IMG/VR virus record: IMGVR_UViG_3300025723_000043
Location: 1 to 57,936 of that record
DNA: 57,936 bases
Origin: a virus
Taxonomy: Duplodnaviria; Caudoviricetes
Strand: one strand, 5' to 3'
Position numbers and translations under genes: made by a program. Positions 5,690 through 54,026 of this stretch are shown here, one piece after another. The stretch's first letter is position 1. Every line of letters starts with the position of its first letter. Under the pieces are notes generated by a model, which worked only from the letters and a program-made list of their open reading frames with translations, did not search any database and was not told where the DNA came from.

Positions 5690-5719
5690 ATCTTAACTTC
5701 TAGTTAATGGTATTGTCAA
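5690..5719 (-). promoter_or_regulatory. Sigma70-like promoter with overlapping TTAACT-N3-AGTTAA palindrome
   Basis: TTGACA-18 nt-TAAGAT on the - strand; palindrome at 5693-5707. Confidence 0.7.
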
Positions 5720-6584
5720 CGGTAGGGTCAATTAACTTCATCCCATAGTTATTTACCCCTTGCTCAATAACAACGCCCTCTTTTTTGATGAACTGGTTTT
5801 TCTTGAATCTTCTGTAGTCCACATAATGGTGCCATCTGTTGAACTTCCACACTACCTTGGCACAGTCAGGGTGTAAGTCAGCAATCATCTGGGACTTAGG
5901 CAAAGTTCCTTCCTTAGCATAGAACTCTTCAGTGTTTCCACCCTTCAGGGTCTGGGTTTGAGCTTTCTCTTGGATGAAGGCATTGAACTGGACAGTGCAG
6001 TGACCGTCTTTTAGGACGCACAGGGACAAATCTGTGTCCTCGTTGTACCTACCCCTCCACCTGTATGGAATATCGTTCTGGATGAGCAAACAAGAGTAAA
6101 TACGGGTATTTCTGATAAAGGGTGGGTGGAGTTCCTTTGACTGAACAAAAAAGTCATAGTTAAAGCCTGAGATGTAGATGTTCTTGTACCTGTCCACAAA
6201 GTCCTCAGCGCACCTAAAAATGGTTGGAGTTGATACCCTGACCATGAGGTTCCTGTTGAGCCTTTGGAAGCTAGCGATGTTGTCATCCATGACCCAGTGC
6301 CTTTCAGCTCCTAGACTGATGCTGTGGTCCCATGCGAAGTTGCGAGCTGGGCCGGGGCCCTTGGACTTCTCATCCCCCAACTCATCACAAGTGTCGTAGC
6401 TCTCCTGATAGGACGTTGGTAGAACAAGTATCTTGTGTTTTGCAATTACGCTTGCATAGTCCTCATACTCTTGGTTCTCCACAATGATGTAGTAGGGCTG
6501 GCCCATCGCTTCCAGTGCCTTTGACGTCAACCTCGAATCAGCCCTACCCTTAGACACAATGTAAATGGGGTACTTATTCTTCAT
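5700..6584 (-). CDS. TET-associated glycosyltransferase-like (TAGT/GREB1-related, GT-A fold)
   Basis: YPIYIVSKGR, V...EY..Y, GPGPARNF.W, HWVMDDNI (DxD-like), NEDTDLSL, KGGNT motifs. Confidence 0.75.
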   Translation of the reverse strand: MKNKYPIYIVSKGRADSRLTSKALEAMGQPYYIIVENQEYEDYASVIAKHKILVLPTSYQESYDTCDELGDEKSKGPGPARNFAWDHSISLGAERHWVMDDNIASFQRLNRNLMVRVSTPTIFRCAEDFVDRYKNIYISGFNYDFFVQSKELHPPFIRNTRIYSCLLIQNDIPYRWRGRYNEDTDLSLCVLKDGHCTVQFNAFIQEKAQTQTLKGGNTEEFYAKEGTLPKSQMIADLHPDCAKVVWKFNRWHHYVDYRRFKKNQFIKKEGVVIEQGVNNYGMKLIDPTVDNTIN

Positions 6585-6810
6585 CAACGTACCTCAAATG
6601 TGCCCTCAGCCTTGGCTCTGCATAGGGGAACCAAATGGTCTTTTGCTTCTCAGTTATCTTCTGGCCCATCAGCTCCTCGAACTTAGCTACGTCCTCATCG
6701 TTTCTGAACCTGACGTAGATCACCCTGTGAGGGCTGAGGTCCTCTTGGACGAACTCAGGCATCCCCTGCCATTCGTCCTCTTCCATGTCAAACAGTTGTG
6801 GTTGTTTCAT
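6574..6810 (-). CDS. Small protein typically adjacent to TAGT-like genes
   Basis: EWQGMPEFVQE...VRFRN.ED...F..L.GQKIT.K.K.IWFP; overlaps the glycosyltransferase start. Confidence 0.65.
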   Translation of the reverse strand: MKQPQLFDMEEDEWQGMPEFVQEDLSPHRVIYVRFRNDEDVAKFEELMGQKITEKQKTIWFPYAEPRLRAHLRYVDEE

Positions 6811-31103: not shown

Positions 31104-32081
31104 TTAACTAAATGTCACAGTTTCGGACGTTGTTGATGTAGCAGTAACTTTATAAACCTTATTAGAACCAACAGTAGTTGGTCCTGTGAAAGTTACTCCA
31201 CCAGAGAATGTTGCAGAGTTTGCACTTGGAATAGAAAGAATCACAACACCTGATCCACCCGATCCACCCGAAACCGTGTTGTTTCCTTCAGCTCCACCAC
31301 CACCTCCAGTGTTTGCACTTCCGTTTCCTCCTCCAGTGCCACCACCGTTACCACCTCCTCCAGATCCACCAGAACCACCACCGTTTGCACCATTACCACC
31401 TCCACCACCTCCTGCATACGTTACAGAAGATCCAGTAATAGATGAGGCAGATCCACTTCCACCAGCTCCTCCCTGAGTTCCACCTACACTACCTGCTGAT
31501 CCTGCACCACCTCCACCACCTCCAGAGTTATCACCACCACTATCTCCTCCAGCATTACCTTGACCAGATGTGCCTGATGCTCCTAATCCACCATTATTCC
31601 ATCCACCACCACCAGAGCCGCCAGTTTTAGCGTTTCCATTACCTGAACTGTAAAATGTTCCACCTGCTCCACCACCAGTTGCAGTTACAGAATTAAATAC
31701 AGAATTATTTCCATTATTTTGCGTTGAACTTGGATAAGATACGCCTGCACCACCAGCTCCAACAGTAACTGTGTAAGCAGTTCCTGTGGCTAAAGATGAT
31801 GCTGTACCAGTTAAAAATCCTCCAGCACCACCTCCACCACCGTAGTAATTACCACCTGCACCACCACCAGCAACAACTAAATAGTTGACTGAAACGGTGT
31901 TGGATTTACCATAAAAATTGGTGGGCATTGTTATTGCACCACTTGGCACACCAGCTAATGTTCTTACATTCGTGTCATTCAAGCTAATTTGACTTGTTCC
32001 AGTACCACCAAGTTCTTTCTCAATAGAAACACCAGCAGTGGTTCCACCAAGACTTATCGGGCCTGATGAATTCATCGTCAT
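31104..32081 (-). CDS. Glycine-rich tail fibre/tip protein
   Basis: YLVVAGGGAGG...GGGGAGG, YAGGGGG, NTGGGGG, GSGVVI. Confidence 0.8.
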   Translation of the reverse strand: MTMNSSGPISLGGTTAGVSIEKELGGTGTSQISLNDTNVRTLAGVPSGAITMPTNFYGKSNTVSVNYLVVAGGGAGGNYYGGGGGAGGFLTGTASSLATGTAYTVTVGAGGAGVSYPSSTQNNGNNSVFNSVTATGGGAGGTFYSSGNGNAKTGGSGGGGWNNGGLGASGTSGQGNAGGDSGGDNSGGGGGGAGSAGSVGGTQGGAGGSGSASSITGSSVTYAGGGGGGNGANGGGSGGSGGGGNGGGTGGGNGSANTGGGGGAEGNNTVSGGSGGSGVVILSIPSANSATFSGGVTFTGPTTVGSNKVYKVTATSTTSETVTFS

Positions 32082-41074: not shown

Positions 41075-41989
41075 TTAGACCCCGGGCGTTCCGTACAGAG
41101 CACGAGGATCAGTCCAGTTAGGAATGTATCGCTCAGTCGCTTTGTAGCGCATAGAGTCAGTCTCGAAGTCACCTTCCATGGTTTTCTCCAAACGTCTACG
41201 CATCATGAGTTTCATACCCTCAGGAGCGTCAGTTTGAACCCACCATGCAGTAGCTGATGTCAAACGTGACAGGACTGCGGCACCCTCGTCCAACAAACCA
41301 ATTGACTTAACAGGGTTCAAGTCATTGTTTGCTGTACCAGTACGCAATACTGATTTCAACAATACTTCAGCTTGGAAGATGTTGCCGGGGGCCACCACCA
41401 ATTGGCGAGGCACCAAACGAATCTTCTTACCATTGTTGTCCACAGCTTGACGGATTTGAATCAACATCTGTTCGAGAGATGTCTGAGACAAGTTAGCCGC
41501 TGTTGCCAACTGGTTGCTGAATGTACCATTCACGATTGGGTGAGCAGTGTTGATCAACGACACGCCATCACCACCCAAATAAGAACTATTGAAAGCTCTG
41601 TTCAAAATGTTTGCACAGAGGGTTTCTTTAGTCTCAATGAGTGATTGAGCGAGGTGACGAGCATACACTTGACCAATACGGATATGGTCACCGTCTTCAA
41701 CCAACACTTTAGTCAACGCAAAGGCAAGGCCATAGACGTTGTAGATATAGCGCTGGAGGAAGAGTACACCACCTTGTTGGTAGCTGACAGGAGTACCGTC
41801 AGGCAACTGGGGCGCGGCTCCAAATCCATAAAGGACTGGCTCTTCGTGGTAGTTACGGGGAATGCCCTCTTGTTCACGGAAAACACGAGACCATTCATCT
41901 TCACGGAGGTCATAAACTCCATCAAAACATTCATTAAGAATAGGTTCAACGATGGATCTAAAGTCCGTACTTCGCATTGGTGCGGCCAT
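41075..41989 (-). CDS. Major capsid protein (HK97 fold, Mu gpT-like)
   Basis: E....GFG.A, GDGV.L....HP, P..LVV.P, DF.T...RYKA.ERY...W.DPR; position after the scaffold. Confidence 0.88.
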   Translation of the reverse strand: MAAPMRSTDFRSIVEPILNECFDGVYDLREDEWSRVFREQEGIPRNYHEEPVLYGFGAAPQLPDGTPVSYQQGGVLFLQRYIYNVYGLAFALTKVLVEDGDHIRIGQVYARHLAQSLIETKETLCANILNRAFNSSYLGGDGVSLINTAHPIVNGTFSNQLATAANLSQTSLEQMLIQIRQAVDNNGKKIRLVPRQLVVAPGNIFQAEVLLKSVLRTGTANNDLNPVKSIGLLDEGAAVLSRLTSATAWWVQTDAPEGMKLMMRRRLEKTMEGDFETDSMRYKATERYIPNWTDPRALYGTPGV

Positions 41990-43190: not shown

Positions 43191-44135
43191 TTAGTATTGG
43201 TTGTTACGGGCATATTGGGCATAAGTCTTAATCATCTTGGCACGCTTTATGGGATCATCCCACATACCTGCATCCTTCATCGCTCTGACCTGTTCTGGCC
43301 TTAACGTAAAGGTGCTACGGTTGCTACTGCCATTAACGCTCTCACGCCCTGAGCTTGTTACAACACTCCTTGGTCCTTTAGAAGACGGTCTTACGTCTGT
43401 GTGATCATTGTAACTACTATCTATATGCTTTGACAAGCGTCTATCAAGTTCGTCCCAATAATCCCGTTGCTTGGGGTCCCAACCCTCTGTAACCAGCTCT
43501 TCATCGATTGCTTTTGCAATGCGACTTTCTGTGTTTGAAAGCTTGGGATCGTACCAATCGTTTCTAGCCATCCAGTCGTTGGCGTGCTTCTGTAGCCTAG
43601 GATCTGGAGGTGGTGGTGCTACCTGTGGAGGTGCACTTGAGGCTTGGTAGGTGCCTTTGATTTGCTCGACCTTTTCTTTTGAGGCGTGCCACAAAGCTTG
43701 AGCCTTCTTGAAAGTCTCGCCATCCCCTGCAGAGATAGCTTCCTCCATTTTGGTCTCATAGTAGTTAAGGCGAACGGTTTCGTCCTCAAAAGCCTTTTCC
43801 AGTCGAGCAATCTCGTTATTCTGTGCTTTTCTTTCAAGAGTAGCCAAGCGTTCAGCTAACAATTCGTTTTCACGCTTGATCATTTCATATTTCAGCTCTT
43901 TTTCAGCAGAAACAGCTTTGGCTAAGTCACGCTTTTGTTTGCGTCTGTTCTTTTGTGACCTTGTGTCAGTTGAGTCATCAGGATGAAAGTCATCTTCTGA
44001 GCCAACTTTAACTTCAGGTTCACGATTGTCACCCTCAGGTACTAAATCTTCAGGTAGGTCTACTGTTGCAGATCCATCCAGTTCCTCATTGACGTTGATG
44101 TCAATCGGTTCTTCGACTTTTTTATCCGTTGTCAT
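43191..44135 (-). CDS. Capsid scaffolding protein (putative)
   Basis: Acidic N-terminus, long coiled coil, PDP...W...N.WY, YW.ELD.RL, L...QV....G; position. Confidence 0.7.
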   Translation of the reverse strand: MTTDKKVEEPIDINVNEELDGSATVDLPEDLVPEGDNREPEVKVGSEDDFHPDDSTDTRSQKNRRKQKRDLAKAVSAEKELKYEMIKRENELLAERLATLERKAQNNEIARLEKAFEDETVRLNYYETKMEEAISAGDGETFKKAQALWHASKEKVEQIKGTYQASSAPPQVAPPPPDPRLQKHANDWMARNDWYDPKLSNTESRIAKAIDEELVTEGWDPKQRDYWDELDRRLSKHIDSSYNDHTDVRPSSKGPRSVVTSSGRESVNGSSNRSTFTLRPEQVRAMKDAGMWDDPIKRAKMIKTYAQYARNNQY

Positions 44136-44554
44136 ATGTAAGCTTTCATTGTTAAGGGATCTCCAGTTACCGTAGCGATAACTTCGTGATCGTTAAGAAT
44201 CATGAAAAGAGCTTGCTCTTCGTTAGGGTCTTCATTTGGCACAGGTACTTCCCACCTATCGCCACCCCATTTGGGAACTCGCACATAGTCCCCAACTTGA
44301 CACCAAGAACCTTCAGGCCACGGTTGCATAGTGTCTCTATTCTTGAACGCTAGGGGTCCAATCATGAGAACTTTGGCTACCATGTTCTGCCATTTCTCTG
44401 TTTCTTTGGTTTCAGCAACCATAAAAATACCACTCGCTGTTGTCTTCTTTGTGCGTTTCAATTGCACTAGAATCCTTGCGCCAAGTGGTTTGGCTTGTGG
44501 ATCTACCTCAGGGAATGCCCAAGCTAGATCTGAGCCATTTGTGCTATCTGTCAT
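44132..44554 (-). CDS. groES: Co-chaperonin GroES-like protein
   Basis: KPLGARILV...TASGIF...AKVL.IGPLAF...CQVGDYV...ILNDHEVIA.V. Confidence 0.85.
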   Translation of the reverse strand: MTDSTNGSDLAWAFPEVDPQAKPLGARILVQLKRTKKTTASGIFMVAETKETEKWQNMVAKVLMIGPLAFKNRDTMQPWPEGSWCQVGDYVRVPKWGGDRWEVPVPNEDPNEEQALFMILNDHEVIATVTGDPLTMKAYI

Positions 44555-44904: not shown

Positions 44905-47439
44905 TTAGTAGGTTTGTGGTTTAAACGCTAGGTCTAATGCAGTTTTTGCCTGCTCGTGTTGCAAAACAGCCTTATCGTGGGCTATTTTTGCAGATTCAAT
45001 TGTCTGTTTAGTCTGGTTGTCAGTCCTATTAAGCAAAATGTCCATCTGGTTCTTGCTCTGATCTTCCTGTTGCTTCTGTGCAAGCTTGGCAGATTCGAGC
45101 TGTTGATCCATTTGGAGGCGTTGTTGTGCGATGGCAGTGTCTGCCTTGTCACGGGCGGCCCGTCGTTGGGTCTCAGCCATCGATGTTTGCAACAAAATCT
45201 GTGCATCAGGGTCTTGAGGCTGTGCTTGCTGTTTCAATTGATCCAACTGCTGTTGCATTTGTGCAATCAAAGGCATAACTTTGGCAAAAATCTGCTGTGA
45301 CTCCAAGAAAACCTGCTGAGAAGCCATGGCATAAGCCTGATCTACCTTCTTTGTGTTCTTAGGATCGTCATAATCCATGTCACTGTAGCTAACACTCTGG
45401 TCCACAATGTCATCCATGCTTTCCTCGTACCACATTCCAACGTGCTGTTGGAGGTGATCAATCATTGGTCCCAACACTTTTGGCATAAACAAAGGGTTAG
45501 AGCCCAACATTGGGTTGCGATAGAAGTCTAAATGGCTCTGGATGTGTGCCAAATGGTCCTGCTCTTCATATGCTTTGGCTGGCTGGCCCTTCAACATATT
45601 GAAATTCTCTTTTGCAGAGCCAATCATGTCATCGTCAGGCTCTTGAACCAACAACTCGTTGATCTGAGGAACCTTCATCTGCTTCAAGAAACGCTCAATG
45701 ACAGCCTTTCTGTCAAACAAATCAGGGTTGTTACCCATAATTGCCATCACAGCTTGGGTCTGAGCCATCCTTTGGGTCTCAGAGAAAATGTGTGGGTCAG
45801 AAACAGGGATCACATCTGTATTGCGCTTGAAGTCATCTTGGTGGACATCAAGGTCAGCAACCAACTCACCCTTGCGTTGTTCATCCAAGTACCAACGATT
45901 GAGCCTGCCAAGGACCTTTAGAACCCTTGCTTGGCTGTCGTGAAGCCTTGCGTGGATGGCTGAGAAGACAACAGCACCTTGCTCGATTAGAGCTTGTGTG
46001 GTGCCAACTGGCATATTGGCGTTAACGTCAGCGATTTTCTCCTCAGAGGTGGTAATGACCCCTTTGGCGGCATCCGTGAGCCAGCCCAACAACTCCATCA
46101 GCACAGCAGAAGGTGGATTAAATGGCATGGGCATGGCGATCTTGCGAACATCATCCACACCGGGTGCCCCCTCAATCTCAGCAATCTGCGTCACCTCCAC
46201 CTGCTGTGTCTGCCCAGACATCCTCGCACCCTTTAGCTTCAGCATCGTGGAGGCGTTGTTGATGTGGGCTGAGTCTAGTAGCGCACGAAGCGAGCCTGTG
46301 AGTGCGGCACTAAGTCCACCAATGAGATGAGGGAGACCAATCGCATACGCTCCCCTCCAAGGTATGAACTTAAACTCAATGAGCCAATCCAACTTCGTAA
46401 GCGTTTCATCACCTTCCTCCCAGTTTCTATAGAGACCAACCACCTTTTGGTCCAGCTCATCCACCATCAGGATGTAAGGTGCTGACTCTCCCTTGGTACG
46501 CTTGTCTTCCTCAAGCTCAAGCCAAGTGTAGATGTGATAGACGTTTCTCACTCCATCATCGTTGTCCTCGTAACGCTTACCCTCAATCTTTGCATTTGCC
46601 TTCTCAGCGAAGCTCTGTTCTGGTTCAGCAGAGGCTCTGATCAGGTTGATATCCCTGTATAAACCAGATCTAACCCTGTTTTGAAACTCCCATGAGCTGA
46701 TGGTATTGACCTCAGTCACACGCTGTGCTGTGTAGAAGTTTCCAGCCTCAAAGGGCAAGTAGATCTTGTCAATAGGCACAAACTCAGTGCAGGGACGCTT
46801 CTTGTGATCGTCATACCACATTTTGAGGTACTGGGAACCACCCAAGGGCAACTGAGTCAACAACTGCTCTTGCTCGTCCCTGAACTCTTCGATTTGCTCA
46901 GTCAACTGCCAGTTCATGTAGTCACGCTTGCGTTCAGCAATGGCTACCTTGTCTTTGGTGACATCACCGAGAATCTTGGTACGGGTTGGGCCATCAGGTG
47001 GGAACATCTCTTTGATGGCTCTTGAGGCAAAGTCTACGCAGGCTTCTGCCATGACAGGGTGGACAACTTTGCTGGCACCCATGAAGTTTGCACCCCCGGG
47101 GGCATCATTCCCCAGCCCAGTCCTCTTCAGCCCCTCTTCATACTTCTTGTCTCTCTCTTCCCTGCTCGTCTTATCATTCTTGATCAAGTCCAAGTAACGC
47201 ATCGCCACAGCATTCAAGTCATATGGGTCAAACTCCTCAGCCAAGTTCTGGTAGAAGTCTGCATCCTCCATAGGACCTTCAAAGTCATTCATCACCACAA
47301 TGGCTGAACCATCTGGCTGTTCAATCACATCTGAATCGTCATCAGGCAAATCAACCTCGATGTTGCCATCCTCATCAGGCTCTGACATTCCATCGATATA
47401 ACGGTTGTAGTCTTGCTCAATAGGCATTTGTGTTGCCAT
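44905..47439 (-). CDS. Portal protein
   Basis: F..NLAE, GAS.VVHP.MAEA.VDF, E.FP..GP, MN.QLT, LRAL.D, PVGTT.ALIEQG, PVSDP..FS; C-terminal Gln-rich barrel. Confidence 0.9.
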   Translation of the reverse strand: MATQMPIEQDYNRYIDGMSEPDEDGNIEVDLPDDDSDVIEQPDGSAIVVMNDFEGPMEDADFYQNLAEEFDPYDLNAVAMRYLDLIKNDKTSREERDKKYEEGLKRTGLGNDAPGGANFMGASKVVHPVMAEACVDFASRAIKEMFPPDGPTRTKILGDVTKDKVAIAERKRDYMNWQLTEQIEEFRDEQEQLLTQLPLGGSQYLKMWYDDHKKRPCTEFVPIDKIYLPFEAGNFYTAQRVTEVNTISSWEFQNRVRSGLYRDINLIRASAEPEQSFAEKANAKIEGKRYEDNDDGVRNVYHIYTWLELEEDKRTKGESAPYILMVDELDQKVVGLYRNWEEGDETLTKLDWLIEFKFIPWRGAYAIGLPHLIGGLSAALTGSLRALLDSAHINNASTMLKLKGARMSGQTQQVEVTQIAEIEGAPGVDDVRKIAMPMPFNPPSAVLMELLGWLTDAAKGVITTSEEKIADVNANMPVGTTQALIEQGAVVFSAIHARLHDSQARVLKVLGRLNRWYLDEQRKGELVADLDVHQDDFKRNTDVIPVSDPHIFSETQRMAQTQAVMAIMGNNPDLFDRKAVIERFLKQMKVPQINELLVQEPDDDMIGSAKENFNMLKGQPAKAYEEQDHLAHIQSHLDFYRNPMLGSNPLFMPKVLGPMIDHLQQHVGMWYEESMDDIVDQSVSYSDMDYDDPKNTKKVDQAYAMASQQVFLESQQIFAKVMPLIAQMQQQLDQLKQQAQPQDPDAQILLQTSMAETQRRAARDKADTAIAQQRLQMDQQLESAKLAQKQQEDQSKNQMDILLNRTDNQTKQTIESAKIAHDKAVLQHEQAKTALDLAFKPQTY

Positions 47440-47441
47440 GA

Positions 47442-49583
47442 TTATTTCCTTTTAAACTCTAGTTCAGCCCATTGCGTATCAGGGTTATCACTAATATAGA
47501 CTTTGCCACCCTTTTTGAATGGGAGCGTGTAATTGACATTGACTTGGTTTTGTTTGTTCTGCAAATTTCTGTTTACATTTGCATTCAGCCTACCTCTGCC
47601 TACTGGCATATTGTAGTTAAGGTTAGCATTGGAAAGCTCGTTCATGTAGGGTGTCTTAGTGTTCATAACGCCCAAGCCTAACTGTCCAGAACCAACAGGC
47701 ACGTTAGCCATCAGATTTGTATTGGTCACGTTGGGAGCTGGTTCCATCATTCTGCCTGACAGTCTAACGCCACCAACGTTAGTTCCTGCTTGGAGATATG
47801 GTGTGTGGTATTGGCTGACGTTACCAGATTGGATGTTCTGCGATGGAGGAGCCATGGAGCTTATGCCTGCACCAAGGTCAACATCACGCATAGGCACATT
47901 CAAAGACATATCTGCCATAGAGTTATCACCCATCTTTTGGACAAACATTCTAGGATCAATTCTTAGATCTGTGTCTGGTAGCTCGTTGTAGCCACCCTCA
48001 TTAAACTTAACCTTCCCACCTTTTTTGTACATGGGGAAGCCTTCAGTTTGTACCTGCTGTTTCATTTCAGGTGTTATGTCAAAAGTATGAAGATTTGCAG
48101 TTTCTGGCTGACCAGAACTAATCATCCCCAACCCTGCATTGTCAGGTACCATAACTTGTTTTCCTGTTTCAACAGGCATGGCATTCATTTCGGTCTGTGC
48201 ACCAAACGGTTTGCCAAGCTTATTGAGAATGTTAGGGATGCGCTGGTCATAAGCGGCTTTCATGCCTTCACCACCAGTTTGCAAATCGAGGCCAGATAGC
48301 TTGTGTCTGCCTTGGTTTAATTCTGTTTGCAAAAGATTATTTGCAACTTCTTTTCCAACATAATCGGACAATTCGTTTGGCTCTACTATTTTATTTATTG
48401 CCTCGCCATTTTTACCTTGGGCAGTTAAATGTTTAATTTTTGGATCATATTGAACATCATTGATATATTTTGCTAGGCTAAAGCGGTCAGCTTGTACAGC
48501 GCCGGGCGTTACAGCAATCTTGTCATACCCATTTTCCACTGCATGGTTCACAAGGTGCTTCAGTGCAAGCTCCTCCCAGTTCTTTTTAAATGGGGCGTCA
48601 GGTACTCCTTTAGTATTTTTAACTTCTTCTTTATCAAATGCTTGTTTTAATTTTTGTTGATTATTTCCAATTTCTTTTTGTTGAGCCAATAATAATGCTT
48701 TTTCTTCATCACTTTTAGCATTAAAAATTTTTAATGTTAAATCTTGAAATTCTTTTGATCCATTTTCTATTTGTTTTTTTATTTCTGAAATAGTTGCAGA
48801 ATTATCACCTTCTTTATACCCATGCTCACGCCCTTGTTGATGCCAATCAGACTGCAATTCTTCAAGGTGCAATACCTTCTCACCATTGGGACCTAAACGG
48901 TCCTTTAAACGCATACTTGCAATGATGTTAGGCTCACCACCAAAGTGTGCTGATACGCCCCCAAACCCACCGTTAGGTAAAGTCAACAGCATCTCACGAT
49001 AGTTTTCACCATTCGGTATGGTCAAGCCTTCGTGGTAGGGAGACACAATCTTCATGTTATCAAGATGTTCAATCCTATTGTCTAGGTGGTCAACATCTTG
49101 TTTGAGCATTTTTACCTTGCTCATGTTTCCAGCATCTCTAGCTTTATTTATCTGCTTATAAATCTTAGATTGCTCGTCACTCAAAGTATCAAAAGTGCTT
49201 TTGTCCCTGATGTTCTGCAACTCCATTAACTCTGCATAATCATGTGGGTCTATATTATCTATTCCAACACGATCAAAATGATCTTCAAGAGAAGATAGAT
49301 AAGAGTGCTCTTGCTTATCTAAGTCCCTGTAATCAGGTGCACCCAAGGTCTTTTGCTTGATCTGAGGTGCTGGCTTACTCTGAACAATCTTCTTGAGGGT
49401 TGGTTTGTCTACCTGAGGCATAGCCTTCAAGGTAGTATCTATTCCACGGTCAGCAAGCTCTGCAGGCTTTACAGCAGGGTTTTTGAGCAAGTCATTGATG
49501 AATGCTTGCCCTGTCCCTTTATTTCTATTTAATGACTCTACAGCCTGTTCAAGAGCTGAGAATAATGGTTTAACTTTAGGCAT
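47442..49583 (-). CDS. Polyvalent-type multi-domain protein: EExQSDW nuclease-like domain plus C-terminal beta-strand domain
   Basis: GENYRE.LL, HF, EELQSDWHQ.GR..GY, PDAPFK..W..LA; then YKKGG/FNEGG, an amphipathic beta region, FKKGG. Confidence 0.65.
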   Translation of the reverse strand: MPKVKPLFSALEQAVESLNRNKGTGQAFINDLLKNPAVKPAELADRGIDTTLKAMPQVDKPTLKKIVQSKPAPQIKQKTLGAPDYRDLDKQEHSYLSSLEDHFDRVGIDNIDPHDYAELMELQNIRDKSTFDTLSDEQSKIYKQINKARDAGNMSKVKMLKQDVDHLDNRIEHLDNMKIVSPYHEGLTIPNGENYREMLLTLPNGGFGGVSAHFGGEPNIIASMRLKDRLGPNGEKVLHLEELQSDWHQQGREHGYKEGDNSATISEIKKQIENGSKEFQDLTLKIFNAKSDEEKALLLAQQKEIGNNQQKLKQAFDKEEVKNTKGVPDAPFKKNWEELALKHLVNHAVENGYDKIAVTPGAVQADRFSLAKYINDVQYDPKIKHLTAQGKNGEAINKIVEPNELSDYVGKEVANNLLQTELNQGRHKLSGLDLQTGGEGMKAAYDQRIPNILNKLGKPFGAQTEMNAMPVETGKQVMVPDNAGLGMISSGQPETANLHTFDITPEMKQQVQTEGFPMYKKGGKVKFNEGGYNELPDTDLRIDPRMFVQKMGDNSMADMSLNVPMRDVDLGAGISSMAPPSQNIQSGNVSQYHTPYLQAGTNVGGVRLSGRMMEPAPNVTNTNLMANVPVGSGQLGLGVMNTKTPYMNELSNANLNYNMPVGRGRLNANVNRNLQNKQNQVNVNYTLPFKKGGKVYISDNPDTQWAELEFKRK

Positions 49584-52552
49584 TACAACATCCTCTCGTG
49601 AACGTGGACTTCATGACCATCAATGATGTGTTTAGTCACTTTTCCACCTTTTTTCTTGCTGAGTTTTACACCCTGAACGTCAGAACCTTTGGGTGCAACT
49701 AATAGCTTTTCATATACATCGTGCACTGGACCATTCCTGTTGATCTGCATTTGACCAACAACGTCACCAATACCAAATACGTCACCAACGCTTCTGGGAC
49801 GCAAAGTAGGGTTAGAACCTGTTCCAAGGTTGTTCAATAGAACAGGTGAGGCGTAATCAGTTCCTAAACCATACGCATGGCCCATACCTGCCTTGTCAAC
49901 TGTTGCGATGAATCCAAGGTCATTGAGGATTGAGTCACCACCAACTGGCTTGTACTTTCCTTGCTTGAGCAAGTTAGAGTTGGTAAACGATCCCTGACCC
50001 TTAGGCAAAGACTCCATGCCAGTGACTCCACCAGTTGTCATGATGGGTCTATTGGTGAGTGGATCAATGGCAACACCCACATCTTTGTGGATTTGATTGT
50101 CTAGTATGAGTCCAGTCTTAGGATCTATGAAGGCACCAGAGTGAAAGTCCTCACGCTTCATGTTATTAGCATTCAAGACTTTTTCAACCAAAGTCTGTAC
50201 TTGTGGGTTTTCCTCAGGATTGGTGAACCAACGATTAGGCATAGGTATCACTGGCTGACGATCAGATGTTTTGATCTTTTCAATCAAGTCATTGAGATCT
50301 GGAGCTTCTTTGGTAAACAATCCACGAATGGTATGGGCTAACTCAGGAGCTTCTGCCAGCATAGACTTGATTGCACCAAACTCGCCTCCACCTGCCATGT
50401 GTACAGGGCCACCACGCTTCTTAGTGATGTCAGGGTTGGTTACATCGTATGTGCCTTGGTTACCAATAGCTGATTTAATTTGTGTGGGATCAAACACACC
50501 CAAATTTTTAACCAATTCATTTTGATCATTGTGTTCGGTCAGATACATTGAATCGTGTCCAAGACTCTTGATTAAGTTCATTACTTCTGGATTTTCCAAT
50601 TCATACCAATGACCTTCAGATATTTGTTGTTTTGTTTTTTCTGGTAACGGTTTTCCTTTAACTTGTGCATATTCATCATACAAGTTAGATAGATGTAATG
50701 GATTTTCGTAATCAAATGGATTTTGTACATTTACATGGACTGGCATAATATGTGGCTTGTTTGCTTCATCGCTCTTATACATTCCAATATAATGATTAAC
50801 AAAATCAGTTTTAGGTGAAACAAAAATTGCTCCCCTTTGACTTGGTTTAAATTGATTAAAATCAGAAAAAGTTCCGTGATACATTACGTTTTTTTCTTTG
50901 CTTGGCTCAAGGAATTTGGCTTTGTTAGCCTCAGCCTCAGCCTTAGAGACTTCCTTGGTGCCTAGACCTTCCATAATGTTTTTAATGAGGCTTACAGCGT
51001 CTTCTGCTAGTCCTACCTTGCCTCCACCTGCAAAAGCTGTCTCAGCCCACTGAGTGTCTAGATTGTCAGACATATGGACAGACCCACCTTTTTTCTTTCC
51101 ATGGCGTTGTAGCCAAGTAAGATACTTTTCAGTAATGTCTTGACTAGGCAAGCCTTCACCTTTGATGCCAAGGGCAAGATCATAGTAGCCTGCAGGTGCA
51201 GTTCTAATCTTTTTACCTTCTGCTTCATTGATTTTATTTTGAGCCTGAACGTGCTCTTTAAATCGTTGGTGCCAATCAGGTAAAGCAATTTCAGTCTCAA
51301 CAGGGACAAAGTTTTGGTTCAAGTCTTCGCCATGGAGCAGTGTTGGAAAGCCGGGGTGCAGGTCAGGCCTATAGCTCGTGTCCCCACTTAACCTAAACAT
51401 CCTTGGCCCAATGGCATATGTGGGTATCTCACCACCATGCTCTGGATGCAACAAGTTTGGCTCAGACTCTGCTCTAAGAATATCTGAAGGCTTGAAGATA
51501 ACACCCTTGCCACTCTTCTCCCCACCCATGGAAATGCCACCCTTTTTGGGTTCAAACGGACTTTTACCCATTATCAGGTCAGCCACCAAGCCTCGCTTTT
51601 CAAATGTATCGATAAGCTTCCAAATATGTGGGTCTTTGATGTTTGCATCAGGTCCTAAGAACAATTGAAGGTTTTTATTAAATTTGTCCTCAAGCTCAGG
51701 ACTCATTTTTCCTGCCTTCAGGTTTTTTAAGAATTCTCTTTTTAATTGATCAAAAACAACTGGATTTGATTTATGTTGGTCAGCAGAACCAAGCATTGTT
51801 GTGTAGATTGCGTTCTCATCATTTAGGTTTAATAAACGACTAGCTGTACCCTCATCCATTACACCCCACACTTTTCCAGAATACTCAGGGTCAACTTGGC
51901 TTATGGCTGGAAAAGAAGCTCCACCAATGTTGCCACCACCAACCTTTGTTCTGTCTGACTGTGTAGTAATTAGTCTACCTTTTCCCTCAACATTGAGGTT
52001 GCCAAGGGCTTCTGACAGTTTTGTCTGTGGGCTACTGGCTATATAGTGGCTTGCTTGCTCTCCAGCTTGCCTTCTATATGGGGCATTAATTCCCAATGGT
52101 TGAGGTACCATGGCTTTAAGCCAGTCAGGGCCTTGGCCCATCATAGCCTCGCTCAAGCCCTGTCCAGCTATTGAAGCACCTTTACCAATGGCTTTAGGCA
52201 CAGCTTCCATCAAGGGGTTGAATGGCGAGTATTCACCTAATGTGCTTGCAAACCTGCCTTCAGGTGAGGTTGCCTTCAGGGGAAGCTTCTGCTCCCACCA
52301 ATCTGAAGTCAATGGAATTTCTGGTGCTTTTTTGCCAGTGACCAACTCATCTAGTCTTGGTGAGCGTGCAGATGTGTATATGTCTGAGGCCATCTGAACT
52401 AGGTCAGCAGGCAAACCCAATCCAGTCTTTACAGCTCCACGAACCATCTGGACTGGCATATCTTTAGAAGCCTCAGGATCTTGAAACGATCTTGTTGGCT
52501 TCATCTGTGGGAAGACACCAAACGATGCTCCCGTACTGTTGTCATCAGGCAT
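49583..52552 (-). CDS. Polyvalent-type multi-domain protein containing an ADP-ribosyltransferase (ART-PolyVal-like) domain
   Basis: VMYHGT...F..F, IFVS, ..PV.V...NP, G.DS, VF.PTQIKSAIGN.G.YD..NPDI; modules separated by KKGG/FAGGG/MAGGG. Confidence 0.72.
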   Translation of the reverse strand: MPDDNSTGASFGVFPQMKPTRSFQDPEASKDMPVQMVRGAVKTGLGLPADLVQMASDIYTSARSPRLDELVTGKKAPEIPLTSDWWEQKLPLKATSPEGRFASTLGEYSPFNPLMEAVPKAIGKGASIAGQGLSEAMMGQGPDWLKAMVPQPLGINAPYRRQAGEQASHYIASSPQTKLSEALGNLNVEGKGRLITTQSDRTKVGGGNIGGASFPAISQVDPEYSGKVWGVMDEGTASRLLNLNDENAIYTTMLGSADQHKSNPVVFDQLKREFLKNLKAGKMSPELEDKFNKNLQLFLGPDANIKDPHIWKLIDTFEKRGLVADLIMGKSPFEPKKGGISMGGEKSGKGVIFKPSDILRAESEPNLLHPEHGGEIPTYAIGPRMFRLSGDTSYRPDLHPGFPTLLHGEDLNQNFVPVETEIALPDWHQRFKEHVQAQNKINEAEGKKIRTAPAGYYDLALGIKGEGLPSQDITEKYLTWLQRHGKKKGGSVHMSDNLDTQWAETAFAGGGKVGLAEDAVSLIKNIMEGLGTKEVSKAEAEANKAKFLEPSKEKNVMYHGTFSDFNQFKPSQRGAIFVSPKTDFVNHYIGMYKSDEANKPHIMPVHVNVQNPFDYENPLHLSNLYDEYAQVKGKPLPEKTKQQISEGHWYELENPEVMNLIKSLGHDSMYLTEHNDQNELVKNLGVFDPTQIKSAIGNQGTYDVTNPDITKKRGGPVHMAGGGEFGAIKSMLAEAPELAHTIRGLFTKEAPDLNDLIEKIKTSDRQPVIPMPNRWFTNPEENPQVQTLVEKVLNANNMKREDFHSGAFIDPKTGLILDNQIHKDVGVAIDPLTNRPIMTTGGVTGMESLPKGQGSFTNSNLLKQGKYKPVGGDSILNDLGFIATVDKAGMGHAYGLGTDYASPVLLNNLGTGSNPTLRPRSVGDVFGIGDVVGQMQINRNGPVHDVYEKLLVAPKGSDVQGVKLSKKKGGKVTKHIIDGHEVHVHERML

Positions 52553-52604: not shown

Positions 52605-54026
52605 CTACTGAGCATAAGGGTTGCCTTTGTTTCTTGGCATACCTGAGTCCACATAGTCATCCATGTCCCATGCCTCTGGAGCTGGTCCATCAATGTCTAA
52701 CCAGCCTGAATCCCTCAGATATCTCAGAGCTTGAGTCATGGCATCCACAAAGTCATCATGAGCTGACTCAGGAAAGCTACAGACTTGGCTGACCATGCCC
52801 TCTGCCCAGTCTTTGACGAAGCCCTTGGTCTTACTGCTCTCAGGTATCCAGACTCTGCCCATGGCGATGATGTTGGAGACGATGTTGAGCCTTTGGGTCT
52901 TGTCTGCACGCCCCGGGTTGTACGCCCGTACAGGCAAATGTGCTCGTTGAAGGTCTTGTATCAGGGAAATCCCTGCTGACTTGTCCTCAATCAGAATCAA
53001 GTCCACCCTCTTCTTCTCCCTGCCATCCCCAAACACAACCTCAAACTCCTCTTTAACTTTGGGACGCAAGTCAGGATACTGTAAGCGATCTTGCCAGCAG
53101 TCGATCACCATCACGCTCATTGGACCATCTGTAGGGCGAAAGCAACCAAAGGTTATCGAGGCTGTTGGATCGTTTATCGTCTTATCTGTATAGGCACAGT
53201 CATAAGACTGGACAATGAACTCGAACTTAGGGAACTCCTTGCTGTTAGGCCATAGCCTGAACATAGAACGCTTGATGATGCCAGTGTCCTCGGGGTCCAG
53301 AATCTCAGCGTAGATTTCCTGTTTCCCAAGCTTTGTCCCCTCGTACTGCAGAATCTGCTTTTGGAACGATGGGCTCAAGTTTTTGATGTTGTCGTAGGTA
53401 GAGGCTGTGGTGACCTTCACATCGTCACCATCCCTGCCTACAAGCTCCACGATGAGGTCTTTGGGCCTTGGGGTAGTGGTAGCTATGATCCTAGTGCGTT
53501 CACCTAAACGGACTGAGAACATGACTTGGTCGTAGGCTTCTTGGAGGTAGTCCCATGCGGCCAACTCATCCAACCACGCCCCATGATACTGCCCTCCACG
53601 AAAACGCTCAGGCTCTGACGCTGGCACTCCCTTGATCAGCGATCCATTGATCAGCTTGATCTCGCTGTACGCCCTGTTGTAGTCAGAAATGATTTGCTCA
53701 GGAATGCAGGCAATGAGTCCGCTCTCGCCTTCAAACATAGTTCCCCGAACGTCCGCAGAAGTTGGTCCAGCACACAGCCAGCGTGAGTTCGGTTCTTGCC
53801 ATGCCCACCACCAGATCTGCTCTGCCGCAGTCCTCGTCTTCCCGGCACCTCTACCTGCCAAAAGGAGCCAAAAGTTCCACCAATCCCCTTGTGGCAACTT
53901 CTGATGCCTGTGCTGTTTCTGTATCCACTGGAGCCTTCTCGCATAAGCTATCTGGTCAGTTGGATCTAAGACATCAAAGGCTTCCTTCACCTTTGGGTCC
54001 TTCAGCAATGCGAACGCATCACTCAT
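52605..54026 (-). CDS. terL: Terminase large subunit
   Basis: AGRGAGKT Walker A, WLDE Walker B, TTTP, QSYD.A...D, IEDK..G, HDD.VDA.TQ nuclease motifs. Confidence 0.95.
   Translation of the reverse strand: MSDAFALLKDPKVKEAFDVLDPTDQIAYARRLQWIQKQHRHQKLPQGDWWNFWLLLAGRGAGKTRTAAEQIWWWAWQEPNSRWLCAGPTSADVRGTMFEGESGLIACIPEQIISDYNRAYSEIKLINGSLIKGVPASEPERFRGGQYHGAWLDELAAWDYLQEAYDQVMFSVRLGERTRIIATTTPRPKDLIVELVGRDGDDVKVTTASTYDNIKNLSPSFQKQILQYEGTKLGKQEIYAEILDPEDTGIIKRSMFRLWPNSKEFPKFEFIVQSYDCAYTDKTINDPTASITFGCFRPTDGPMSVMVIDCWQDRLQYPDLRPKVKEEFEVVFGDGREKKRVDLILIEDKSAGISLIQDLQRAHLPVRAYNPGRADKTQRLNIVSNIIAMGRVWIPESSKTKGFVKDWAEGMVSQVCSFPESAHDDFVDAMTQALRYLRDSGWLDIDGPAPEAWDMDDYVDSGMPRNKGNPYAQ

Follow-up and report, generated by a model that had tools for sequence, protein, structure and literature searches.

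Polyvalent proteins are large phage proteins that string together disparate effector domains and that, in the main text of Iyer et al. 2017 (PMC5512222), are proposed to be packaged and injected. Their presumed role is that of effectors of anti-defence and takeover, delivered by injection. How proteins so large and so changeable enter the head, and whether they work intact or as fragments, is a question on which the phage lineage described here bears. We analysed IMG/VR record IMGVR_UViG_3300025723_000043, a podovirus-like genome graded complete, whose entire 57,936 bp form the window referred to below. Between its large terminase (TerL) and portal genes lie two open reading frames (ORFs), ORF989 and ORF713, whose modules are bordered by a seven-residue motif, [FYMK]-[AK]-x-G-G-x-[VAIL], which we call the tag; a separate protein encoded among the head genes, P0001, carries an array of the same tag. 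Like the polyvalent proteins described in that main text, this family contains ART-PolyVal, adds ParB_N, GDSL lipase, PcfJ or LPD23 domains in homologs and is encoded beside head-morphogenesis genes; unlike them, it shows no MuF or zincin-like peptidase domain that we could find, and it combines heptad-tagged junctions with a tag-array protein encoded apart from them. Neither 'linker' nor 'glycine' occurs in the main text of PMC5512222 (0 instances each), and literature searches, which left the supplementary domain tables of that paper outside their reach, returned no description of the heptad motif or of the array protein.

The tag is a real shared motif, present far above the expectation from composition. 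Tags were counted with the regular expression [FYMKLIWV][KRAHN]xGGx[VIAL] and their significance was taken from 1000 shuffles, on gene lists that, for the window (90 ORFs) and for all related loci, are crude longest-ORF calls without curation. ORF989 has 4 tags where 0.26 are expected (1 of 1000 shuffles reaches 4), ORF713 has 2 against 0.12 (8 of 1000 reach 2) and P0001 has 12 against 0.34 (0 of 1000 reach 12). These three ORFs together hold 18 tags in 2208 amino acids (aa), compared with 2 in the 16346 aa of the remaining 87 window ORFs, which is the enrichment that an earlier note on this DNA had proposed to look for. Every motif string which that note quoted from the two cargo genes is in its place, and so is the peptide SDN[LP]DTQWAE in both (51041-51070 in ORF989 and 47463-47492 in ORF713). 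The pattern extends to 49 related viral loci, where tag density per 1000 aa is 3.85 in the polyvalent family (241 tags over 62587 aa), 25.7 in P0001-like proteins and 0 in the TerL, portal and major capsid protein (MCP) families; counts over related loci cover those other than the window itself (L001) and the annotated records L002 and L003. A logo built around all GG dipeptides, independent of the regular expression, recovers the motif in the tagged family only, with M, K, Y or F at position -3, A or K at -2 and V or A two residues after GG, and 29% of the 1347 GG contexts in the family fit the tag versus 3.5% of 403 elsewhere. The 121 family proteins contain 592 strict tags in all.

The constraint acts at the level of protein, because the glycine codons in tags vary, following general usage, and linkers repeated within one gene have diverged to 61-85% DNA identity over 20-72 nucleotides (nt). 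We rejected the idea that tags are ribosome-binding sites or internal starts, given that tags contain the Shine-Dalgarno-like GGAGG less often (9 of 255) than other GG pairs do (88 of 1086), and the variable synonymous codons and diverged linker repeats likewise do not support tags as DNA-level recombination repeats.

The tags mark the borders of interchangeable modules, as the earlier note had supposed. The module limits of ORF989 lie at residues ~150/155, 495, 711-725 and 972, and its tags at 486, 507, 711-723 and 966, so that each limit except that between modules A and B has one. A tag stands 44-49 aa before and/or 10 aa after the ART domain in ORF989 and in four of six scanned homologs (P0007, P0042, P0043 and P0048), and no tag falls inside the Pfam stretches listed for those six. 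Across the 121 family proteins, 28% of 34065 internal BLAST breakpoints are within 5 aa of a tag, compared with 4.4% of random positions. Large indels behave in the same way. In 72 gaps of 60 aa or more between homologs sharing at least 50% identity, tags stood within 12 aa of both ends in 32, of a single end in 29 and of no end in 11, compared with 0, 12 and 60 when these gaps were placed at random. Domain gains and losses in homologs map to tags, at one or both ends, in 61 of 72 cases against 12 of 72 random placements. The homolog of ORF713 at locus L006 offers the cleanest instance, in which YKRGGKV is followed directly by HMSTNPDTQWAELQFKRK; the protein thus lacks module M2 exactly from tag to tag. 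The association with borders is consistent in direction across all four measures.

ORF989 comprises module A (aa 1-154), module B (155-495), module C, the ART (505-720), module D (725-972) and a C-terminal tail, and ORF713 comprises M1 (1-518) and M2 (535-688) followed by a C-terminal tag and mini-helix. The start of ORF713 overlaps the stop of ORF989 in TAATG, and the portal ATG lies 2 nt beyond the ORF713 stop, an arrangement that suggests co-expression with the head assembly genes. In other members, such as P0053 and P0078, ORF713 modules are fused to ORF989-type modules, and we therefore read ORF989 and ORF713 as one polyvalent protein that has been split into two translationally coupled genes within a hypervariable slot. 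With ART-PolyVal and three further conserved modules in ORF989, and with their position in a phage genome beside head and portal genes, both belong to the polyvalent-protein class of Iyer et al. 2017, as the earlier note had seen from the modular layout and its flanking terminase and portal. Its ART call holds as well: ART-PolyVal (PF18760) matches at 54.8 bits against a cutoff of 31.2 and over profile positions 8-139 of 140, and judged by this profile match the assignment is secure. The nuclease-like domain that it had also named did not appear in Pfam scans of either ORF.

The remaining modules are harder to place. Modules A, B, D, M1 and M2 gave no Pfam family above cutoff in a search at E <= 5 and no solved structure in PDB sequence searches, where ORF713 had a single chance-level match (E 0.12); M1 aligns with a stretch of a long PHROG profile that carries the label endolysin, and with 'lysin' and hypothetical ORFs of cyanophages. 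ORF989 has at least 374 relatives among 8000 candidates scored, and the 120 listed (560-1723 aa) have module B as their common core (in 106 of 120), which they join to ART-PolyVal, to the other four domains named above or to PF26151. The AlphaFold2 (AF2) model of module B has a mean predicted local distance difference test (pLDDT) score of 70.5. VIA-align placed this model against YTH, ASCH and PH1033 barrels at Z 5.2-5.7 (121-132 residues, root-mean-square deviation 3.5-3.8), below the tool's noise level of about 8, as is its best hit, a phiKZ capsid chain (Z 5.9, 92 residues). Foldseek returned no match at E <= 0.001 and an Atlas search scored 0.80 at most, and a PUA-like (YTH/EVE/ASCH) fold for module B is accordingly a lead only. 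A role for module B as the processing protease found no support either, given the lack of any PDB sequence match or Foldseek match at E <= 0.001 and VIA Z scores of at most 5.9. Elsewhere in the window, 5700-6587 (minus strand) encodes a TET-associated glycosyltransferase (TAGT; E 8.5e-46), which suggests DNA hypermodification by the phage and is worth setting beside the weak PUA-like lead.

Related loci long enough to show context are ordered TerS (small terminase), TerL, polyvalent gene(s) and portal. The placement between TerL and portal holds in the window and in 23 of 23 related loci of at least 12 kb for which synteny was printed, two of which (L013 and L038) each end before one flank. 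The slot contains either one ORF of ~1000-2400 aa or two to three ORFs (two in the window, L004, L006 and L008), and it is the most variable part of otherwise syntenic genomes.

P0001 is the second component of the system. The earlier note had counted about 20 tags in it; the recurrence stands, and the figure resolves into 12 strict tags, 15 [KRH]GG and 25 GG dipeptides. At least 2721 relatives (at 90% clustering) were found among 8000 candidates scored, and the family forms 498 clusters at 50% identity, 201 of them with E <= 1e-30. No relative bears a Pfam domain or an informative name. Each of the 145 newly listed representatives carries 3 or more strict tags (median 8), and an Atlas search returned only viral 'hypothetical protein' clusters (best score 0.89). 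In the family alignment the tags stand in register column by column with invariant glycines, and both ends are conserved (N-terminus ...TDEPSVILKLKKGG, C-terminus ...KKRGGSIKR), yet in the AF2 model from 37 sequences pLDDT averages 43.8 and is below 50 for 389 of 506 residues. P0001 is therefore a conserved protein that is predicted to be disordered and whose conserved elements are the tags. A tagged polyvalent protein and a P0001-like protein occur together in six of six loci that reach far enough (L016, L033, L034, L035, L038 and L080) and in metagenomic phage MW202545.1, and neither is present in Caulobacter phage RW or Roseobacter phage CRP-902.

The motif is shared with further proteins encoded in the virion-gene cluster, again in line with the earlier note. 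P0002 consists of three small basic modules whose joints, KKMAKGG (aa 40) and KKKEGGGV (aa 88), coincide with PHROG and Pfam limits (1-42, 42-90 and 108-168), and in P0003 the tag AKKGGHI at aa 262 precedes a C-terminal part (aa 289-370) conserved with Caulobacter phage RW. Parts of P0002 also occur as separate ORFs between scaffold and capsid genes in the T7-like Pelagibacter phage Eistla and in Synechococcus phage S-TIP37 (L057 1394-1899 and L058 1474-1844), and tblastn found P0002 relatives in 526 phage records, chiefly cyanophages and pelagiphages. A 325-aa glycine-rich ORF of the tail-fibre region (31104-32081, minus strand; phrog_2295) has 51 GG dipeptides and zero tags.

Where the tags sit within proteins bears on what they might do. 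In 62 of 121 family proteins the last tag is 4-22 aa from the C-terminus, and tandem tags are common, at spacings of 7-8 or 23-25 residues, the wider of which encloses a short helix peptide (SDNLDTQWAE, DIQASDRRLAQAIEKR, NQDAMNMAV and similar). The C-terminal element of ORF713, a tag with YISDNPDTQWAELEFKRK, recurs in 79% identical C-termini behind other modules in P0051, P0056, P0058 and P0116. A search with the ART core stripped of tags, among proteins of 106-340 aa, found two standalone ARTs only, P0244 and P0245, each retaining a mini-helix at the N-terminus and, towards the C-terminus, a tag that leads into a tail, ...H.H.LEIEERPL, that resembles the ORF989 end ...HEVHVHERML; around P0244 the genes run TerL, ART, a 956-aa polyvalent protein and portal. 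This conserved post-tag tail (in ORF989 at 49583-49636, minus strand, ...DGHEVHVHERML; in P0244 and P0245 ...THAHHLEIEERPL) always stands directly before the overlapping start of the next gene. Conservation is symmetric around GG (positions -3, -2 and +2) rather than weighted to the P side. Tandem spacings of 7-8 and 23-25 aa would suit avidity, and tags in tandem or near a terminus are more in keeping with a binding motif than with sites that serve cleavage alone.

Across phages the tag is specific to lineage, and we rejected it as a general property of polyvalent proteins. Of the cyanophage polyvalent giants that share M1, one has no tag where 0.56 are expected and the other, the 4012-aa ORF of Mel-JY33, has 2 where 0.73 are expected; the 2387-aa and 1185-aa ORFs of Dfl-JY45 have 0, and the 1649-aa ORF of F116, which shares the ART region, has 1. 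Because M1- or ART-sharing giants elsewhere are untagged or have such low counts, the tag is an invention of particular podovirus lineages. The pattern recurs in a distant lineage: MW202675.1, whose portal is 27.6% identical to that of the window, has four consecutive large ORFs after the portal with 1-3 tags each, and beside them lies a basic protein of 382 aa in which 3 strict tags occur together with, read by eye, further x-K-x-G-G-like copies; this protein has no significant similarity to P0001 (best BLAST E 0.023). The basic array protein of MW202675.1 is annotated yenB and lies directly after the portal with the tagged ORFs (L054 5032-13694). The same record has a 'sprT-like family' protein just upstream of the small terminase (L061 32571-33209). 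SprT is a zincin-type metallopeptidase, and no sprT-like peptidase was found in the window ORFs scanned. CRP-902 presents a different picture, in which four separate proteins, gp65, gp66, gp68 and gp72, from the block between the portal and a GroES-like gene, have no strict tags and share the N-terminal peptide MANP[VI]KG/D... (L056 37155-42406), which may be another kind of address peptide, common to cargo proteins that are not fused.

We tentatively favour reading the heptad as a multivalent recognition or docking motif that loads or holds cargo in the head, because of its terminal and tandem copies, the symmetric conservation around GG, the presence of an array protein among head genes and the failure to find a protease in the ORFs scanned. 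The heptad would be read by one common partner, and this docking 'address' would bring or hold tagged proteins inside the procapsid; any module flanked by tags could thus become cargo, and P0001 would use or compete for the same site. A bolder form of the docking reading, which we find somewhat doubtful, is a plug-and-play cargo address in which modules flanked by h-[AK]-x-G-G-x-V would enter the procapsid by way of multivalent contacts that the disordered P0001 arranges; P0001 might then serve as a CsoS2-like or encapsulin-like loading system inside an HK97-fold capsid. Such an address would explain the free exchange of effectors in the TerL-portal slot.

Several points weigh against docking. 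Tags at every junction would be expected equally of cleavage sites or hinges, the breakpoint and indel counts are phylogenetically non-independent, and BLAST alignments may tend to break off where a short motif is conserved. Caulobacter phage RW, which infects Caulobacter vibrioides CB15, shares 79% MCP identity with the window yet has zero tagged proteins, and the MCP therefore does not co-vary with tags. The x positions range from basic (KKKGGKV) to acidic (YAEGGEV) between lineages, which makes a simple charge-based contact unlikely. The joints of P0002 are weak tags, and its standalone relatives read MAKKG and MPAKRG in place of GG. A predicted complex of the MCP with ORF713 aa 660-713 scored 0.00 in two runs and is used neither for nor against binding.

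It is doubtful, in our estimate, that the tags are instead GG cleavage sites, at which a host or unrecognised phage protease would free the effectors, along with small basic peptides from P0001. Tags at the junctions of ORF989 and at most indel ends would suit such sites, which would also be accessible in regions predicted to be disordered, and natural N-termini of standalone or first modules match post-tag starts (...GASFGVFPQMK in ORF989 versus ...MADGG-AAFGVFPHMK in fused homologs); processing of polyvalent proteins is, moreover, predicted in the main text of Iyer et al. 2017 (PMC5512222). However, 52 of the 90 window ORFs were scanned with Pfam and/or PHROGs (the other 38 are mostly below 100 aa) and include no processing peptidase, their only peptidase-type matches being a Peptidase_S74 fibre chaperone and the endolysin, and no peptidase Pfam domain occurs among the 120 listed homologs. 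Cutting at tandem tags 7-8 aa apart, or at tags 4 aa from a terminus, would yield useless peptides of 4-8 residues, and the conservation lacks the P-side weighting of a cleavage site.

Passive flexible hinges or recombination joints, at which in-frame module exchange survives selection and which have no reader, are an unlikely account of the tags. They would produce the breakpoints and indel ends at tags, the tag-to-tag deletion at L006 and the variability of the TerL-portal region, and repeated linker elements within one gene do share identical seeds of 10-14 nt. A passive linker, however, has no need of the hydrophobic residues at -3 and +2 that are conserved across proteins without common modules, nor of a tag kept at the end of single-domain proteins or 8-12 tags arrayed in a separate, conserved disordered family of 498 clusters. 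The M1-sharing giants manage with linkers that lack tags beyond the counts given above, and the repeated linkers of one gene have drifted well apart in DNA.

Very unlikely is a role as homotypic stickers that co-condense P0001 and polyvalent proteins with each other or with DNA, which the predicted disorder, multivalency and basic charge of P0001, the aromatic or aliphatic residues beside GG and the lack of any receptor gene separating tagged phages from RW would allow. In its weaker variant, tags mimic the GroES mobile loop (K-x-G-G-I-V-L) to recruit GroEL, in keeping with a GroES-like protein beside the head genes of every related phage, but that gene is also present in the untagged RW and CRP-902 and the hydrophobic triplet of the loop occurs in a minority of tags only.

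Turning to the genome as a whole, nearly all genes of the window are on the minus strand. They run from a 170-aa ORF through TerL, ORF989, ORF713, portal, a GroES-like protein, a 314-aa scaffold-like protein, two small conserved proteins, MCP, a 413-aa protein, P0001, P0002 and an SU10-type adaptor to fibres, lysis genes and large virion proteins; proteins of the head region include two of 184 and 198 aa (Table 1). The 170-aa ORF is a putative small terminase by position only. The GroES-like gene is likewise annotated in MW202545.1, Caulobacter phage RW, CRP-902 and MW202675.1, tagged or not. The phage collection contains no near-identical phage, and its closest records to this lineage are metagenomic, the nearest by portal identity being MW202545.1 (62.6%), followed by Caulobacter phages RW, KcrB, RLK and GB2A (45.3%) and Roseobacter phages CRP-901 and CRP-902 (~33%). 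The MCP is unusually conserved beside these diverged portals, at 79-96% identity across the loci and Caulobacter phage RW while portals of the same genomes are 45-62% identical. A second terminase pair occupies the left end of the record on the minus strand, with a Terminase_3-type large subunit (2-1084, E 1e-36) that is incomplete at the contig end and an Sf6-like small subunit (1133-1552, E 0.0013, under the cutoff); a second packaging system, an insert of satellite type or a join made in assembly could each account for it.

Table 1. Positions of the tagged genes, their modules and tags, and neighbouring head genes in the window
Feature	Positions	Strand	Remarks
Large terminase	52605-54026	-	Terminase_6N/6C; upstream border of cargo slot
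ORF989	49583-52552	-	First half of split polyvalent protein
Module B	51068-52090	-	Conserved family core, in 106 of 120 listed homologs
KKKGGSV, ORF989 aa 486-492	51077-51097	-	B/C junction
Mini-helix peptide SDNLDTQWAE, ORF989	51041-51070	-	Between two tags
FAGGGKV, ORF989 aa 507-513	51014-51034	-	
ART-PolyVal (PF18760), ORF989 aa 556-701	50450-50887	-	E 2.3e-14
Tandem KKRGGPV-H-MAGGGEF, ORF989 aa 711-725	50378-50422	-	C/D junction
KKKGGKV, ORF989 aa 966-972	49637-49657	-	Followed by C-terminal tail TKHIIDGHEVHVHERML
ORF713	47442-49583	-	Second half of split polyvalent protein
YKKGGKV-K-FNEGGYN, ORF713 aa 519-533	47985-48029	-	M1/M2 junction
FKKGGKV + YISDNPDTQWAE, ORF713 aa 689-707	47463-47519	-	Mobile C-terminal element
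Portal protein	44905-47439	-	phrog_1216; downstream border of cargo slot
GroES/Cpn10-like gene	44132-44554	-	Between portal and scaffold-like gene
MCP	41075-41989	-	Phage_capsid_4
P0001	38224-39744	-	506-aa basic His/Lys/Gly-rich tag-array protein; 12 strict tags
P0002	36891-37412	-	Three fused small basic modules with tag-like joints; C-terminal module DUF6321
P0003	19982-21103	-	Gly/Ala/Ser-rich N-terminal half and conserved C-terminal domain; one tag, AKKGGHI

Overall, this lineage offers a handle on how polyvalent proteins enter the head and act, in the form of a seven-residue motif at exchangeable units and a large unannotated companion family, with Caulobacter phage RW as a near relative that lacks the system. 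As a loading signal, the tag would be a portable peptide with which foreign proteins could be packaged into phage heads; as a cleavage site, it would point to a GG-specific protease, so far unrecognised, that acts on phage polyproteins.

Three known families invite comparison. The internal proteins of T4 carry a single N-terminal capsid targeting sequence that the prohead protease cuts off. The targeting sequence of P1 DarB is also single and N-terminal, as described in PMC9024508. These sequences direct unrelated proteins into the head and can carry foreign cargo, and the tag, if the address reading holds, would resemble them as a short peptide common to unrelated proteins; it differs in that it lies inside the protein or at its C-terminus and comes in several copies, and the 52 scanned ORFs (of 90) yielded no prohead protease. 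The cargo-loading peptides of encapsulins are short, contain glycine, lie in disordered regions and bind the inside of an HK97-fold shell, and carboxysome CsoS2 is a basic, disordered, multivalent repeat protein. The elements of C-terminal tag plus predicted helix are reminiscent of the former, and P0001, being basic, predicted to be disordered and repeat-bearing, of the latter; neither has any sequence relation to the tag. Finally, the cysteine proteases of adenovirus and African swine fever virus (ASFV) mature core polyproteins at GG-X. The tag has a similar Gly-Gly core after a hydrophobic residue at protein borders, but in the adenain consensus that residue lies one position closer to GG, and no clan-CE-type or other processing protease was found among the ORFs scanned; compared by eye, the double-glycine bacteriocin leader and the adenain consensus were both rejected as matches, their hydrophobic positions being misaligned with those of the tag. 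The tag belongs to none of the T4/P1, encapsulin/CsoS2 and GG-X families.

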